Positions 1 to 11,775 of a stretch of DNA of 39,680 nucleotides are shown in pieces. The stretch is from a virus (lineage: Duplodnaviria; Heunggongvirae; Uroviricota; Caudoviricetes), in IMG/VR virus record IMGVR_UViG_2506520037_000006. One strand, given 5' to 3'. The translations under genes and the position numbers were made by a program. Below the pieces are notes generated by a model. It was not told the origin of the DNA. It saw only the letters and a program-made list of their open reading frames with translations, and searched no databases. Each line of letters begins with the position of its first letter. Position 1 is the first letter of the stretch.

Positions 1-2445
1 ATGCCAACACCAACCATCATCAAAACACTCGCCACCCACCGCGAAAAACCGTTTGTCAGCGTCGTCACGCCAACCTGGAACCGCGGCGCATTCCTGCCGT
101 ACCTGCTCTATATGTACCGCTATCAGGATTACCCGGCAGACCGCCGCGAACTCATCATCCTCGACGATTCCCCACAAAGCCATCAACACATCATCGACCG
201 CCTGACCAATGGCACGCCGGAAGCCTTTAACATCCGCTACATCCATCACCCGGAAAAACTGCCGCTGGGCAAAAAACGCAACATGCTCAACGAACTGGCG
301 CGCGGCGAATACATCCTCTGCATGGATGATGACGACTACTATCCGGCAGATAAAATCTCTTACACCATCGCTATGATGCAAAAACACCGGGCGCTCATCT
401 CCGGTTCCGACCAGATCCCCATCTGGTACAGCCATATCAACCGTATCTTTCAAAGCCGCAGCTTTGGCCCACATAATATCCTCAACGGCACCTTTTGCTA
501 TCACCGTAACTACCTGAAAAAGCACCGTTACGACGATGATTGCAATTTAGGCGAAGAGAAAAGTTTCACCGACAATTTCAGCGTTAACCCGCTGCAACTG
601 CCCGGCGAGCGCACGATTTTGTGTATCTCGCATAGCCACAACACCTTTGATAAAGACTTTATTATCGGGGCCAGCACGCCAGTAAACACGGCGCTTACGG
701 ATATCGTCCGCGATCCGCTGCTGCGCAATGCTTATCTGAGTCTGCATAACGCCACTCATCACCAGGCGATCAACCATCAGGCGATCGATCAGGTGGTCGT
801 CGTGAATCTGGATAAACGCCCGGATCGCTTACAACAGATCCGTGAAGAACTGGCATTGCTGCATATTCCACCCGAGAAGATCACCCGCCTTGCCGCCTGT
901 GAAGATGAAAACGGTCAACGGGGCCGCCGCCTGTCGCACTTGCAGGCGCTGCGACTGGCGCAACAGCATGGCTGGCAAAATTACCTGTTGCTGGAAGATG
1001 ACGCGGTTATTCTCAAGCAGGAAAAACATATTCAGGTGCTGAACACGCTGCTGGCGAGCCTGGCGAAAATTCCCTGGCAGGTGATGATCCTCGGCGGCGA
1101 AATTTCGCAGGGAACGATGCTAAAAAGTTTGCCGGGGCTGGTGCACGCGCGGGACTGCCGCAAAGTGTGCGCTTATCTGGTGAACAGCCGCTACTACCCG
1201 CAACTGGCGCAGCAGTTGAGCAACGATGAGCACTCGCTGGAAGACGTCTGGCAGCCGCTGCTACGCGCCGACAAATGGCTGGCCTGTTACCCGAGCCTTT
1301 GTTACCAGCGACCGGGCTTTAGCGATATCGAGAAAAAAGTGACCGACAACATTAGTCACTATTTCAATAAGTTACCTGTATCCACAAAGCCATCCGCATT
1401 ACCCATCGCCGACACCATCGGCTTTTTTATGGAAACCTCATTCCACTACGCGCTGTATCGTCCAATCATCACCGCTCTACAGGCGCAGGGGAAGAGCTGC
1501 ACACTAGTGATCAATGACCGCGTGTTTAAACCGTTTCTTGATGAGATGCTGGAAACACTGAAAAACATCGACGATCCGCAGCTTAAAGGTATGCGCTTGT
1601 CTGAGATGCAGGCACATAGTCAGCGGGTGAAATGCCTGGTCAGCCCCTACCACACGCCTGCGCTCAATGGCCTTTCACCCGTGAACATCCGCGCCATGTA
1701 CGGCTTAGCTAAAGAGACGTGGAACCATGCAGACTGGAACCGTTTTTATCAGCGTATTTTGTGTTACAGCCACTACAGCCAGCGGGCGCTGGAACATTTC
1801 GGCAATGCAAAAGTGGTTGGCAACCCGCGCTTCGACGCCTGGCATAACGGCACGTTCGACCGCGCTCTGCCGGAAAATATTCAACCCGATTCCTGTAAAC
1901 CTACGGTGCTCTACGCCCCCACGTTTGGCGCATTAAGCTCCCTGCCCCACTGGGCAGAAAAATTGGGCCGCTTAAGCGGTGATGTGAACCTGATTTGCAA
2001 ACTGCACCACGGCACCAGCTCGCGCCCGCAAGAAGCTGCATCGCTGGCCCTGGCGCGCAGGCACTTAAAACAGCTCACCGACTCCGCCCGCCACACGCTG
2101 GCGCTACTGGCAAAGGCCGATTACGTGCTCACCGATAACAGTGGGTTTATTTTCGATGCGATCCACGTTGATAAACGGGTGATCCTGCTCGACTTCCCGG
2201 GCATGACGGAACTGCTCGACGGTGAGAAAAGTTATTCCACGCCGGAGAGCGCCGACCAGCGGATTCGCGAAATATTGCCGGTGGCTCATGAGGTTGCGGA
2301 ACTGCGTTACTTATTGTCAGAGGCGTTTGACTGGGGGTCGGTGCAGGCGCGGCTTACGGAGATTCGCCATCACTATTGCGATGCGTTTATGGATGGCAAG
2401 GCGGGAGAACGGGCGGCGATTGTGATTGTGGAGGCGCTGGGGTAA
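1..2445 (+). CDS. Host multidomain glycosyltransferase: N-terminal GT2-like domain, central GT25-like domain, C-terminal TagB/TagF-like CDP-glycerol glycerophosphotransferase domain
   Basis: 814-aa ORF beginning with ATG at window base 1 (an upstream extension cannot be excluded); DxD-type MDDDD motif in N-terminal third; VLYAPTF and VLTDNSGFIFD motifs typical of TagF-family enzymes in C-terminal third; stop TAA at 2443-2445. Confidence 0.6.
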   Translation: MPTPTIIKTLATHREKPFVSVVTPTWNRGAFLPYLLYMYRYQDYPADRRELIILDDSPQSHQHIIDRLTNGTPEAFNIRYIHHPEKLPLGKKRNMLNELARGEYILCMDDDDYYPADKISYTIAMMQKHRALISGSDQIPIWYSHINRIFQSRSFGPHNILNGTFCYHRNYLKKHRYDDDCNLGEEKSFTDNFSVNPLQLPGERTILCISHSHNTFDKDFIIGASTPVNTALTDIVRDPLLRNAYLSLHNATHHQAINHQAIDQVVVVNLDKRPDRLQQIREELALLHIPPEKITRLAACEDENGQRGRRLSHLQALRLAQQHGWQNYLLLEDDAVILKQEKHIQVLNTLLASLAKIPWQVMILGGEISQGTMLKSLPGLVHARDCRKVCAYLVNSRYYPQLAQQLSNDEHSLEDVWQPLLRADKWLACYPSLCYQRPGFSDIEKKVTDNISHYFNKLPVSTKPSALPIADTIGFFMETSFHYALYRPIITALQAQGKSCTLVINDRVFKPFLDEMLETLKNIDDPQLKGMRLSEMQAHSQRVKCLVSPYHTPALNGLSPVNIRAMYGLAKETWNHADWNRFYQRILCYSHYSQRALEHFGNAKVVGNPRFDAWHNGTFDRALPENIQPDSCKPTVLYAPTFGALSSLPHWAEKLGRLSGDVNLICKLHHGTSSRPQEAASLALARRHLKQLTDSARHTLALLAKADYVLTDNSGFIFDAIHVDKRVILLDFPGMTELLDGEKSYSTPESADQRIREILPVAHEVAELRYLLSEAFDWGSVQARLTEIRHHYCDAFMDGKAGERAAIVIVEALG

Positions 2446-7311: not shown

Positions 7312-7575
7312 ATGGCAAAAGTAATTATTGAAATTAAAAATACAGTATCTGGAATTAAAGGACGGAATTTGCGCACCAGCATTGCGGTGGACGGTAGTGC
7401 GGAACTGGACGGTGATGAGGGTACACTTGCTGGCATGGTGGCGTTACTGGTGCTTAATAAAAGCCAGAAAATAATTAATGAGTCAGCCCATGAAGCTATT
7501 GAGATTTTGAAAAACGATGGTGTCATCACCAGTGGTCGTGTCACTGAAATGGCTGTTGAAAAAACATGTCACTGA
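7312..7575 (+). CDS. Early semi-essential region hypothetical protein, 87 aa
   Basis: ATG at 7312 with SD aaggtga; same-strand tightly packed operon. Confidence 0.6.
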   Translation: MAKVIIEIKNTVSGIKGRNLRTSIAVDGSAELDGDEGTLAGMVALLVLNKSQKIINESAHEAIEILKNDGVITSGRVTEMAVEKTCH

Positions 7576-8009
7576 AAGGAACGCTGACAATGAATGTCAA
7601 AATCCGAAATGAAATTCAGGCATTAATCCGAATTCAGGAACGCAATAACAACGGTGGTGAATTACGCGAGTTTATTTGTGCGCGTGAAGTTGATGGCTAT
7701 GGTGAAAAAACTTACCTGATTACTTTCGACCATTACAGCATCTGTGCGCGTTATTGCGGCGAAAGCATATCCCGCGCCATTGCGTCTGGCGATGCGTTTA
7801 ACGTGGATTTATGGGAGTACGTCATGGACCGGGAATACATCTGCGCATCAGACCCTGAAGCCCGTGAAATGTGGCAGCGTATCTGGCGCGATTACCGGTT
7901 AATGGCAAAAGGCTGGGCGCGCTGCTGTTATTCCTCGCTTGCCCTGAAAGCGGTTCAGTTATCGCTGCGGCATATTCCGGCATCACTGCGCGAGCCTCTG
8001 CTGTACTGA
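7566..8009 (+). CDS. Early semi-essential region hypothetical protein, 147 aa (alternative start 7590)
   Basis: ORF overlapping upstream gene by 10 nt; second in-frame ATG at 7590 has SD aaagga. Confidence 0.6.
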   Translation: MSLKGTLTMNVKIRNEIQALIRIQERNNNGGELREFICAREVDGYGEKTYLITFDHYSICARYCGESISRAIASGDAFNVDLWEYVMDREYICASDPEAREMWQRIWRDYRLMAKGWARCCYSSLALKAVQLSLRHIPASLREPLLY

Positions 8010-8309
8010 ATGGTGACTGACATGAAGTGTAATCGTAAGCGCTGGTCACGCGAAGACCGGGAATTTATCGAAGCCAACGTCGGGAAAATGACCGTTGAAG
8101 AAATGGCGGAAAAACTGAAAGTCGCCACAACCGCCCTCCGGGCACATGCCAGAAGGCACGGAATATCATTGTGTGTATACCGAATCAGTGAACACGACAA
8201 ATATTTATGTCGTGAACTTTATAAAGAAGGACTGGATATTCATGTTATTGCCCGAAAGATGGAATTAAGCAATCGAGCTGTATCCAGCATTGTATACAGC
8301 GGATATTAA
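8010..8309 (+). CDS. Early semi-essential region protein, possible HTH DNA-binding, 99 aa
   Basis: ATG at 8010 overlapping upstream stop (TGAATG); helix-turn-helix-like segment KMTVEEMAEKLKVATTALRAHARRHG. Confidence 0.55.
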   Translation: MVTDMKCNRKRWSREDREFIEANVGKMTVEEMAEKLKVATTALRAHARRHGISLCVYRISEHDKYLCRELYKEGLDIHVIARKMELSNRAVSSIVYSGY

Positions 8310-8328
8310 TTAACAGGAGCTTTAATTT

Positions 8329-8853
8329 ATGGCTAAACCAGCAAAACGTATCAAGAGTGCCGCAGCGGCTTATGTGCCACAAAACCGCGATGCGGTGATT
8401 ACCGATATTAAACGCATCGGGGATTTACAGCGCGAAGCATCACGTCTGGAAACGGAAATGAATGATGCCATCGCGGAAATTACGGAGAAATTTGCGGCCC
8501 GGATTGCACCGATTAAAACCGATATTGAAACCCTTTCAAAAGGCGTTCAGGGATGGTGTGAAGCGAACCGCGACGAACTGACGAACGGCGGCAAAGTGAA
8601 GACGGCGAATCTTGTCACCGGTGATGTATCGTGGCGGGTCCGTCCACCATCAGTAAGTATTCGTGGTATGGATGCAGTGATGGAAACGCTGGAGCGTCTT
8701 GGCCTGCAACGCTTTATTCGCACGAAGCAGGAAATCAACAAGGAAGCGATTTTACTGGAACCGAAAGCGGTCGCAGGCGTTGCCGGAATTACAGTTAAAT
8801 CAGGCATTGAGGATTTTTCTATTATTCCATTTGAACAGGAAGCCGGTATTTAA
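8329..8853 (+). CDS. gam: Gam, Ku-like DNA-end-binding host-nuclease inhibitor, 174 aa
   Basis: Translation MAKPAKRIKSAAAAYVPQNRDAVITDIKRIGDLQREASRLETEMNDAIAEITEKF... matches Mu Gam; SD caggagc. Confidence 0.92.
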   Translation: MAKPAKRIKSAAAAYVPQNRDAVITDIKRIGDLQREASRLETEMNDAIAEITEKFAARIAPIKTDIETLSKGVQGWCEANRDELTNGGKVKTANLVTGDVSWRVRPPSVSIRGMDAVMETLERLGLQRFIRTKQEINKEAILLEPKAVAGVAGITVKSGIEDFSIIPFEQEAGI

Positions 8854-10012: not shown

Positions 10013-10181
10013 AACATCGTATTCGTGGCTGGGGAAATTCACCACGGTGAAACAGGAATGCCCGACCTGCGGTAATGAATCCCCTGAATATCTGAAAGAG
10101 TGCCCTCATTGTGGCGGGCTGAAATGCAACCACTGCGATATGGGCGATGACACAGCGTGCATGAATTGTGAAGGTGAATAA
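9999..10181 (+). CDS. Small zinc-ribbon protein with four CxxC pairs, 60 aa
   Basis: CPTC, CPHC, CNHC, CMNC motifs; SD ggcggagg before ATG 9999. Confidence 0.55.
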   Translation: MENNKTSYSWLGKFTTVKQECPTCGNESPEYLKECPHCGGLKCNHCDMGDDTACMNCEGE

Positions 10182-10182
10182 T

Positions 10183-10485
10183 ATGAATAATGAAACTAAA
10201 TTTACTCCCCTTAATATTGATAACGTCATGGCTGAAAAAGGGATGCTGGAACGTGTTCGCGCTATCGTTGAATATGGTATTAAGCATAATCTCACCGCCA
10301 GAGAAGTCCGTGACATTATCAACCGCGAAATGAATCGTCTGGAAACAGTAGTGGCACTGCAAAATGAAACAGCCCGCGAGGAGTACATCCGCCGCAGGCT
10401 GGGGCTATCAGACCAGGATATTGTTACTGACGCTCATGTGTTTGAGGCTTTTGAGATCCGTCAGCATCTGGGTCTAACGAACTGA
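10183..10485 (+). CDS. Early semi-essential region hypothetical protein, 100 aa
   Basis: ATG at 10183 with SD aaggtga, 1 nt after upstream stop; track ORF starts at GTG 10168. Confidence 0.6.
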   Translation: MNNETKFTPLNIDNVMAEKGMLERVRAIVEYGIKHNLTAREVRDIINREMNRLETVVALQNETAREEYIRRRLGLSDQDIVTDAHVFEAFEIRQHLGLTN

Positions 10486-10690
10486 TAATGTCTTCCATGA
10501 TCTTTGACAGTTGCAGTTTTTCGCGGCGGCTTGTTCTCATTGCAGGCGCATCTTTTAAAATCTCTGCTGAAGAGCTGAAAATGGCTTTGCCCTCTTCTGC
10601 GGTGATGATCGCCTTCTTCACCAGAAGGCGCACCAGTGCTGATGCAATCGCATAACCTGCAACATCATAAGGTTGTACATTATTTTCCAT
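10424..10690 (-). CDS. Candidate leftward-transcribed small protein (88 aa) inside the early region; function unknown
   Basis: ATG at 10688-10690 (minus) preceded by SD agagagga with 5-nt spacer; fills the only gap in rightward coding; overlaps 3' end of upstream rightward gene by 62 nt. Confidence 0.3.
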   Translation of the reverse strand: MENNVQPYDVAGYAIASALVRLLVKKAIITAEEGKAIFSSSAEILKDAPAMRTSRREKLQLSKIMEDIISSLDPDADGSQKPQTHERQ

Positions 10691-10760
10691 AAAATCCTCT
10701 CTGATTGATGTGTAAATTCAGGCGGTGTTGCAGCACCGCCCCCTTTCCGGAGGTACGATC

Positions 10761-11312
10761 ATGAGTCGCACATCCCTGATTAAATTAATCCATGTCGCCC
10801 GTCGGGAGCTACAACTCGACGACGACACTTACCGCGCTTTTCTGATGCAGAAAACGGGCAAAATCAGTTGCCGCGAGCTGACGGTCACGCAACTGGAACA
10901 GGTGCTCGGTGCCATGAAAGAACGCGGCTTTAAGAAGCAGAATAAATACCCCCGTCGCCGCTTTAAGGGGCATGTCACGCCCCGTGAGAAGGTGTATAAA
11001 ATCTGGCAGCAGATGGCAGAAGACGGTTTTATTACCGATGGCGGTGATGTGGCGCTGGATAAATATGTTCAGCGCCTGACCGCGAAACGCAACGGCGGAC
11101 AGGGCGTTTCCACACTGGCGTGGTGTCATGGCGACACGCTGCTGACAGTCCTCGAAACACTCAAGCAGTGGCACATCCGCTGTATTCGTGAAGCCTTTTC
11201 CCGTCACGGGCTTCCATTGCCGGTCAGTCCGTCCGGTCGTGAACTGCGCGGCTATGATGCCATGACGGCGGCTTATGCCCATGCCAGAAAGACACGGAGG
11301 ATGGCACAATGA
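10761..11312 (+). CDS. gemA: GemA, early regulatory protein, 183 aa
   Basis: ATG at 10761 with SD ggaggtacgatc; translation MSRTSLIKLIHVARRELQLDDDTYRAF...; located immediately upstream of mor. Confidence 0.85.
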   Translation: MSRTSLIKLIHVARRELQLDDDTYRAFLMQKTGKISCRELTVTQLEQVLGAMKERGFKKQNKYPRRRFKGHVTPREKVYKIWQQMAEDGFITDGGDVALDKYVQRLTAKRNGGQGVSTLAWCHGDTLLTVLETLKQWHIRCIREAFSRHGLPLPVSPSGRELRGYDAMTAAYAHARKTRRMAQ

Positions 11313-11703: not shown

Positions 11704-11728
11704 AAAGCCGGTTAATCCGGCTTTTTTT
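11704..11728 (+). terminator. Rho-independent terminator ending the early transcript (Mu t9.2)
   Basis: gccgg-ttaat-ccggc hairpin followed by ttttttt directly after mor stop. Confidence 0.85.
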
Positions 11729-11775
11729 ACGTCCTCAATATCCTGTGATGAATAACCGTACCGGGGAAAATCATC

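Follow-up and report, generated by a model that had tools for sequence, protein, structure and literature searches.

We report that gp15, an 88-aa leftward open reading frame (ORF) in the early region of phage Mu, is very probably a genuine protein-coding gene that would form its own small leftward transcription unit within the otherwise rightward early region, and that the rightward ORF annotated opposite it, Mu_54, is most likely its antisense shadow. The locus was studied in a stretch of 39,680 nucleotides (IMG/VR record IMGVR_UViG_2506520037_000006), called the window here. Positions 10100..10900 of the window are 100% identical to AF083977.1 and NC_000929.1 at 7572..8372 (window position = Mu position + 2528), and the Mu prophage of Escherichia coli W and its derivatives is identical to this region as well; W, KO11FL and LY180 have exactly this prophage (NC_017664.1 321285-321621). 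The genes and signals at the locus are as follows.

10424..10690, minus strand: coding sequence (CDS) of gp15 (Mup15), 88 aa, starting MENNVQPYDVAGYAIASALV; from the ORF list, the NC_000929.1 and Prokaryotic Genome Annotation Pipeline (PGAP) annotations and family matches.
10695..10702, minus strand: Shine-Dalgarno (SD) sequence of gp15, AGAGAGGA, 4 nt from the ATG; from the sequence, with the motif position kept in relatives.
10183..10485, plus strand: gp14, the convergent partner, overlapping gp15 by 62 nt; existing annotation.
10488..10655, plus strand: Mu_54, a 55-aa ORF annotated in the revised AF083977.1.
10761..11312, plus strand: gemA, the divergent neighbour; Pfam GemA, E 3.8e-31.

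The gp15 start codon lies at 10690..10688, preceded by the SD sequence and then TTTT, and is separated by 70 nt from the ATG of gemA. The conserved core of the protein comprises approximately residues 8-72, and the last 20 codons overlap the 3′ end of gp14. Upstream of Mu_54, an SD-like sequence is absent (CTGGGTCTAACGAACTGATAATG). An earlier note on this DNA, made from the letters alone, had picked out the 88-aa leftward ORF with its ATG at 10690 and its SD, the end of gp14 at 10485, the start of gemA at 10761, the rightward 55-aa ORF at 10488..10655 without an SD, and a hairpin at 10721-10740 (GGCGGTG-TTGCAG-CACCGCC); each of these is found in the sequence as described. The same window also carries minus-strand shadow ORFs of 140 aa and 219 aa over gp13/gp14 and gemA; thus, ORF length alone is no evidence of a gene here, and gp15 stands above chance because of its homology, synteny, conserved SD, terminator and codon usage.

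The gene itself is already known and is an accessory one. In RefSeq NC_000929.1 it is Mup15 (complement 7896..8162; protein NP_050619.1; phrog_8747), UniProt catalogues the exact protein as GP15_BPMU, “uncharacterized protein gp15”, its PGAP entry from E. coli W is WP_000431116.1, and the SfMu record lists it as SfMu_16. The annotation as Mup15/gp15 dates from the 2002 Mu genome, and a minus-strand CDS, “putative F-134”, was already listed at the locus in the 1991 left-end record (M64097). Two suppositions of the earlier note, that the gene might have been overlooked and that all Mu genes except c lie on the rightward strand, therefore do not hold. In the revised GenBank record AF083977.1, gp15 was dropped and the plus-strand Mu_54 was annotated instead, with a ribosome-binding site (“RBS”) of 3 nt located approximately 15 nt upstream; a “semi-early promoter” is also listed at window 10679..10745, and the annotation update behind this record is acknowledged in PMC9239132. 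In a collection of 15 billion proteins, the exact gp15 protein was found on at least 1000 contigs versus 3 contigs for the Mu_54 protein. The annotation conflict at this locus is real, and the plus-strand call in AF083977.1 is probably a shadow ORF of gp15.

To place gp15 in a family, we compared it with the corresponding region of phage D108, in which an unannotated 119-aa leftward ORF with an SD occupies the same slot between gene 14 and gemA:

GQ357916.1 / NC_013594.1 7853..8212 (L005 1122..1481), complement: gp15 homologue of D108; from PHROG profiles and MAFFT.

Gene calls for the D108 protein were found on at least 760 bacterial contigs. A direct BLASTP comparison with gp15 gave no significant match (E 0.63), and the two proteins are 23% identical when aligned with MAFFT; phrog_32893 was matched over the same segment by gp15 (E 5.9e-4) and by the D108 ORF (E 5.4e-7). 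Three PHROGs make up the gp15 family, phrog_8747 (E 6.6e-60 with gp15), phrog_38610 and phrog_32893. A word-seeded search retrieved near-identical gp15 relatives only, as did tblastn of gp15 and the D108 ORF against 50,697 phage records, and a whole-family alignment search of viral contigs returned close relatives only. A profile built from the two proteins matched 11 proteins at E<=1e-3 (1.5e-17 to 3.4e-5) among 1.84 billion representatives, and a wider profile reached about 24 clusters in Escherichia, Klebsiella/Raoultella, Citrobacter and Salmonella. The common core of the family reads [YF]D[VIL]AG[YF]x[IL]AxxLxxxLVxKG[IV]I[TD]xxE[GA]xxI; its conserved residues include D9, L23, K26, I29 and I37.

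A strictly kept location also defines the family: the gene faces gemA head-to-head and gp14 tail-to-tail. In all 16 contexts inspected, which represent six divergent members, the leftward gene lies directly upstream of gemA, divergent from it and against the early operon, and its 3′ end overlaps the convergent upstream gene; the distance to gemA is 65-75 bp in the family contexts read. The same divergent arrangement was found at a Klebsiella locus that was reached independently via GemA. Furthermore, the neighbour that converges on the leftward gene and overlaps it belongs to the gp14 family (29-71% identity) in 8/8 other distinct gp15-family loci. The check proposed earlier, conservation across Mu-like phages including D108, thus turned up both a family and its synteny. 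A GemA-anchored scan with one genome per species, which took in Xenorhabdus, Photorhabdus, Pectobacterium, Dickeya, Vibrio and Aeromonas, found the gp15 family in one of 21 diverse gemA loci, and at most of these loci a co-oriented gene abuts gemA; because of this low count, we regard the family as a trait of the Mu-proper clade in Enterobacteriaceae. In a Mu-like prophage of Vibrio scophthalmi, an unrelated 77-aa leftward ORF (L052 / L053 1133..1366, minus strand) lies approximately 135 bp upstream of gemA; it appears helix-turn-helix (HTH)-like by eye and comes with a terminator-like hairpin of its own. Leftward genes may thus have arisen more than once at the gemA junction.

We next consider which strand codes. 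An SD is present 4-8 nt from the leftward ATG in all seven aligned loci, and AAGGA, GAGGA or AGGAG is found at the same position in the D108, Klebsiella, P0006, P0010 and P0013 loci despite diverged intergenic DNA. In the P0010, P0013 and Salmonella loci (L023, L025 and L029), all three early-sense frames are interrupted by 3-11 stops across the gene, and the longest plus-sense ORFs starting with ATG are 17, 46 and 34 aa. When BLOSUM62 local scores were computed among nine loci, the gp15 frame scored highest in 35 of the 36 pairs, the sole exception being a pair with near-identical DNA; for Mu versus P0013, the score was 81 in the gp15 frame compared to 25 for the best of nine antisense pairings. 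In addition, a codon-usage model was trained on 23 long Mu genes. True Mu genes scored 0.368 ± 0.107 bits/codon and antisense shadows in the same frame relation –0.19 ± 0.08 bits/codon; gp15 scored 0.244 bits/codon at full length and 0.403 bits/codon over codons 2-68, which are clear of the gp14 overlap, while Mu_54 scored 0.005 bits/codon. Among close relatives, only ~5 sites vary and the ratio of nonsynonymous to synonymous substitution rates (dN/dS) was given up; the synonymous-site comparison that had been proposed has little power here, because the third codon positions of gp15 and Mu_54 coincide, and the few changes are conservative in the gp15 frame (K>Q, M>I, K>N, L>M) and radical in the Mu_54 frame (L>W, S>M). 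The initial preference for the leftward over the rightward ORF is upheld by conservation, SD and codon score, and the 55-aa ORF does look like antisense translation, being unconserved, without an SD and poor in codon score.

The leftward unit is also predicted to have its own end, located in the antisense strand of gp14:

10360..10401, minus strand: intrinsic terminator of the leftward unit; from fold energies, recurrence and a feature of AF083977.1.

The element begins 25 nt past the gp15 stop and lies wholly within the gp14 coding sequence. It consists of a stem-loop at 10370..10401 with a G+C-rich stem of 10 bp (CAGCCTGCGG / TCGCGGGCTG) and a T-rich tail, TTTCATTTTG, at 10360..10369. The predicted fold is –26.2 kcal/mol on the minus strand versus –20.5 kcal/mol on the plus strand, and only the minus strand has the U-rich tail. 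The “TransTermHP terminator” listed in AF083977.1 at 7839..7873 (window 10367..10401), inside Mu_14, is the same element. Hairpins with T-rich tails and differing sequences were found at the equivalent place in D108, L020, L023, L025 and L028, and the Salmonella locus L029 has a hairpin where the full-length gene would end. By the same criteria, 6 other matches occurred in ~170 kb on both strands, a background of ~0.005 per 140 nt, and none of the gemA loci without a leftward gene reached the 9-bp stem threshold. Homologous loci keep the hairpin with different nucleotide and amino-acid sequences, which argues for a dual constraint on the gp14 codons; in Mu, the element covers gp14 residues ...NETAREEYIRRRL. 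It is unusual for the antisense strand of a coding gene to harbour a terminator.

The convergent layout raises the question of whether RNA rather than protein is the product that matters. The leftward unit could be mainly a cis-antisense RNA that pairs with Pe mRNA at the gp14 3′ end, or collides with Pe transcription, and so limits read-through into gemA-mor, the ORF being secondary. The 62-nt coding overlap together with the extension to the terminator at 10360 gives ~125 nt complementary to gp14 mRNA, the convergent gp14-gp15 layout is kept in all loci, and the unit sits just upstream of mor, the switch to middle transcription. However, amino-acid conservation where the DNA can no longer be aligned, the kept SD and ATG, and gene-like codon usage point to selection on the protein, and a non-coding regulator needs no ORF of 80-120 codons in every member; we therefore consider this explanation quite improbable. 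The suggestion made earlier of an antisense regulatory unit fails in its purely non-coding form, since amino-acid-level conservation rules that out as the only role; a protein role of gp15 may be compatible with an added antisense role of its mRNA.

Two further explanations concern Mu_54. Both frames might be translated in Mu as an antisense overlapping pair, Mu_54 being a young overprinted gene limited to Mu/SfMu-type phages. Consistent with this, both ORFs are intact in every close relative examined, their coinciding third codon positions minimise mutual constraint, and the Mu_54 codon score is slightly above that of ordinary shadows. Nevertheless, open antisense frames are common over real genes here, as the 140-aa and 219-aa shadows illustrate, and Mu_54 lacks an SD, is conserved only in near-identical DNA and has a shadow-type composition, which makes dual translation very unlikely. 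Even less likely, in our judgement, is that Mu_54 alone is the genuine gene, its translation being coupled to the gp14 stop (TGATAATG) and the leftward ORF being its shadow. It is the call of the revised, acknowledged annotation; its ATG lies 2 nt past the gp14 stop; its acceptance would keep the whole early region on one strand; its frame is open in SfMu-type relatives, with a 61-aa ORF in the P0006 locus; and its codon score exceeds that of typical shadows. Against it stand the missing SD, the stops that break the plus-sense frames in the P0010, P0013 and Salmonella loci, the lack of an equivalent ORF in D108, protein similarity between loci that falls below that of the gp15 frame, the radical substitutions, the occurrence of the protein on 3 contigs only, a best PHROG match at E 0.027 (not significant) and no Pfam match. 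Furthermore, taking Mu_54 as the gene leaves the minus-strand SD and terminator without explanation.

The hairpin between gp15 and gemA was examined together with possible promoters:

10721..10740, plus strand: GC-rich stem-loop with a 7-bp stem and a 6-nt loop, followed by a pyrimidine/T-rich tract; from covariation.
10779..10784 (–35, TTTAAT) and 10758..10763 (–10, CATGAT), minus strand: weak, putative candidate for a leftward promoter, inferred from a position weight matrix (PWM) scan; it overlaps the gemA start codon.

In Mu the hairpin ends 20 nt before the gemA ATG, and it lies 15-21 nt upstream of this ATG in all Mu-clade loci, including those of vB_YpM_3 and PhiR68_1, which have no gp15. 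Across seven distinct sequences, all 49 of 49 cells pair, compensatory double changes occur in four of the seven pairs and the loops vary; 0/500 shuffles matched the observed value. The sole non-Watson-Crick pair is a G.U in the gemA-sense RNA (A.C on the other strand). In the gemA sense, the 3′ flank is T/pyrimidine-rich (in some loci, e.g., TCTTTTTT and TTTTTAAA), and the gemA SD follows. As judged from this covariation, the hairpin is a real structured element tied to gemA, and its most probable function is that of an attenuator-like, terminator-like or stabilising stem-loop in the rightward RNA, located just ahead of the gemA ribosome-binding site; it may also fall in the gp15 5′ untranslated region (UTR) if the leftward promoter lies to its right. 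An Rfam search found nothing relevant in 10200..10900. Another hairpin, GCCGG-TTAAT-CCGGC followed by T7, was observed at 11706..11735 just after mor, under the annotated middle-promoter feature and a predicted terminator of AF083977.1; it is the second terminator-like hairpin in the region that coincides with an annotated promoter feature, the first being that at 10721..10740. In PhiR68_1 (L007 1430..2062, PV340575.1), GemA has probably been annotated with a start 27 codons upstream of the true one, since the conserved start MSRTSLIKLI is found at 1511 with the hairpin and SD before it.

That gp15 is a small DNA-binding regulator, with the 7-6-7 palindrome at 10721..10740 as operator controlling a divergent gemA-mor promoter and itself, is extremely unlikely: the layout is that of a textbook regulator (a small helical protein encoded divergently from an operon, 70 bp of intergenic DNA that contain a perfect inverted repeat, and the “semi-early promoter” of AF083977.1 over the palindrome), but the palindrome is kept in phages without gp15, is identical in Mu and D108 despite proteins of 23% identity, differs between the similar P0016 and P0021 proteins and changes in its stems by compensatory pairs plus one G.U, as expected for RNA, and all gp15 members are acidic with no HTH profile or fold match. 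The hairpin was accordingly rejected as a gp15 operator, being present without gp15 and showing no co-variation with the protein.

Several points weigh against gp15 as a protein-coding transcription unit. The consensus scan found no minus-strand promoter in 10150..10950 and no convincing sigma-70 promoter, and the PWM scan gave candidates of only 4-7 bits at the homologous position in Mu, D108, L020, L025 and L028; thus, minus-strand transcription of gp15 is a prediction. A literature search found no RNA-seq, Ribo-seq or proteomic data on the locus, and one on Mup15, the semi-early promoter and Pgem found nothing usable. There was no Pfam, NCBIfam, PADLOC or PDB sequence match and no informative fold match. 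Family members come from gene-caller output, so their open frames are partly so by construction. The terminator scan let G.U pairs count in the scanned orientation only, which biases the comparison of stems between strands; the T-rich tail is strand-specific irrespective of this bias. The curators of AF083977.1 preferred the plus-strand ORF. Finally, in many genomes an early stop codon behind the conserved two-helix core shortens the Salmonella variant to 43 residues, and one E. coli variant (P0004) is frameshifted, which indicates that selection on gp15 is not universal. The truncated Salmonella member (L029 / L030 3001..3204) accounts for 76 blocks of the collection, and its called start is extended over the gemA start.

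The presence of gp15 is polymorphic among close relatives of Mu, and the variable part is sharply bounded:

10487..10709, no strand: present/absent segment of 223 bp, comprising gp15 codons 1-68, the SD and 7 nt upstream of the SD; absent in vB_YpM_3.

The segment is bounded by the 4-bp repeat TGAT (10483-86 and 10706-09). At the corresponding place, vB_YpM_3 (MT374852.1, L006 about 1283..1295) reads ...GAACTGATGTGTAAATTCAGGCGG..., with the segment precisely absent. The Yersinia phages vB_YpM_3 and vB_YpM_23, both isolated as plaque-forming, lack exactly these 223 bp, which demonstrates that gp15 is dispensable for plaque formation. A partial-coverage pattern as in vB_YpM_23 was also seen in a few E. 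coli chromosomes (hits H64 and H65), and gp14 and gp15 are both missing from PhiR68_1. A further indel in this semi-essential early region was observed in SfMu and its relatives, which carry an extra 102-aa rightward gene, SfMu_14 (L004 884..1192, KP010268.1), between gp13 and gp14; Mu is without it. Between loci, gp15 identity showed no correlation with that of GemA (r = 0.00) and a correlation with that of gp14 (r = 0.65); among Mu, D108 and L025, GemA is 93-96% identical and gp15 25-41% identical. From these alignments, gp15 appears to be swapped or diversified as a cassette while gemA stays nearly identical. Fast divergence beside a stable GemA is typical of genes for host interaction or inter-phage conflict, and because its divergence fits that pattern, gp15 is a reasonable candidate for functional screens.

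All members of the gp15 family are acidic (isoelectric points 4.3-6.1), and their AlphaFold2 (AF2) models are helical, with predicted local distance difference test (pLDDT) scores of 82-89 over residues 11-40. The models suggest that gp15 is a small, acidic, soluble helical protein with about three main helices and a disordered tail overprinted on gp14. Hidden Markov model and structure tools, proposed earlier as a check, therefore yielded a family by profile and a helical model, and no known domain or fold. The best sub-threshold match in these searches was to the T4 MotA N-terminal domain (E 0.095, not significant), and PADLOC gave 0 defence families for six gp15 members at E<=1. Most likely, gp15 acts by binding another protein rather than DNA. 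A role in modulating the host, competitor phages or defence is suggested tentatively and should be taken as a possibility somewhat short of even.

The transcription unit that we propose would comprise, from right to left, a 5′ UTR including or abutting the conserved hairpin, the SD, the 88-codon ORF and the intrinsic terminator in the antisense strand of gp14. Together, gp14 and gp15 form a conserved convergent pair with overlapping 3′ ends; in Mu-proper prophages of Enterobacteriaceae, the pair directly precedes gemA, from which gp15 diverges. By analogy with other phage genes that oppose a lytic operon, the gp15 unit would not depend on Pe for its transcription, which would probably take place in the lysogen or when Pe is weak. 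Its transcript would be complementary to the last ~125 nt of gp14 mRNA and may also damp early read-through into gemA-mor. A more specific proposal, which we consider unlikely, is that gp14-gp15 is a hitherto unrecognised two-gene module in which the leftward transcript both encodes a fast-evolving acidic protein against a host, defence or competitor target and brakes Pe read-through into gemA-mor; the brake would work by cis-antisense pairing or convergent transcription, with the transcript ending at the terminator in gp14.

Morons are autonomous accessory units that carry a promoter and a terminator of their own and are inserted between the genes of phage operons, e.g. HK97 gp15, lambda bor and lom. 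Like these, gp15 is a small accessory ORF between conserved genes, with an orientation that does not follow the operon and with an SD and an intrinsic terminator of its own; some close relatives lack it precisely, others have a strongly diverged allele in its place, and phage growth does not require it. Typical morons also occur in unrelated phages, but gp15 is confined to a single position (gp14-gemA) in a single phage clade; its 3′ end and terminator are intertwined with gp14, and its own promoter is represented only by the weak candidates above. In Pseudomonas phage Fc02, olg1/sie1, which lie opposite gene 10, are transcribed in the lysogen and confer superinfection exclusion (PMC9936078). 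Like them, gp15 belongs to a Mu-like phage, is antisense to the early lytic operon and overlaps an early gene; in contrast, olg1/sie1 adjoin the repressor and gp15 adjoins gemA. We found no sequence similarity of gp15 to any characterised protein, although no direct comparison with olg1 was made. The type I toxin-antitoxin-like pair txpA/ratA is a convergent cis-antisense pair with overlapping 3′ ends. The predicted gp14 and gp15 transcripts likewise run towards each other and overlap 3′ to 3′, one unit having its terminator within the gene of the other; however, the “antisense” partner gp15 encodes a conserved protein, there is no evidence of gp14 toxicity, and neither gene has a transmembrane segment. 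Only Mu genes 19, 20, 23 and 25 are listed as encoding proteins with transmembrane domains (TMDs) in PMC9239132.

Mu is a reference phage, and its GenBank record most likely carries the wrong strand at the gp15 locus, while the D108 reference records leave the gp15 homologue without annotation; settling the strand returns a real protein to the catalogue. Our understanding of Mu is unchanged unless a function of gp15 is found. If the two-gene module were true, it would add a checkpoint between early and middle expression, or it would stabilise lysogeny against leaky early transcription.

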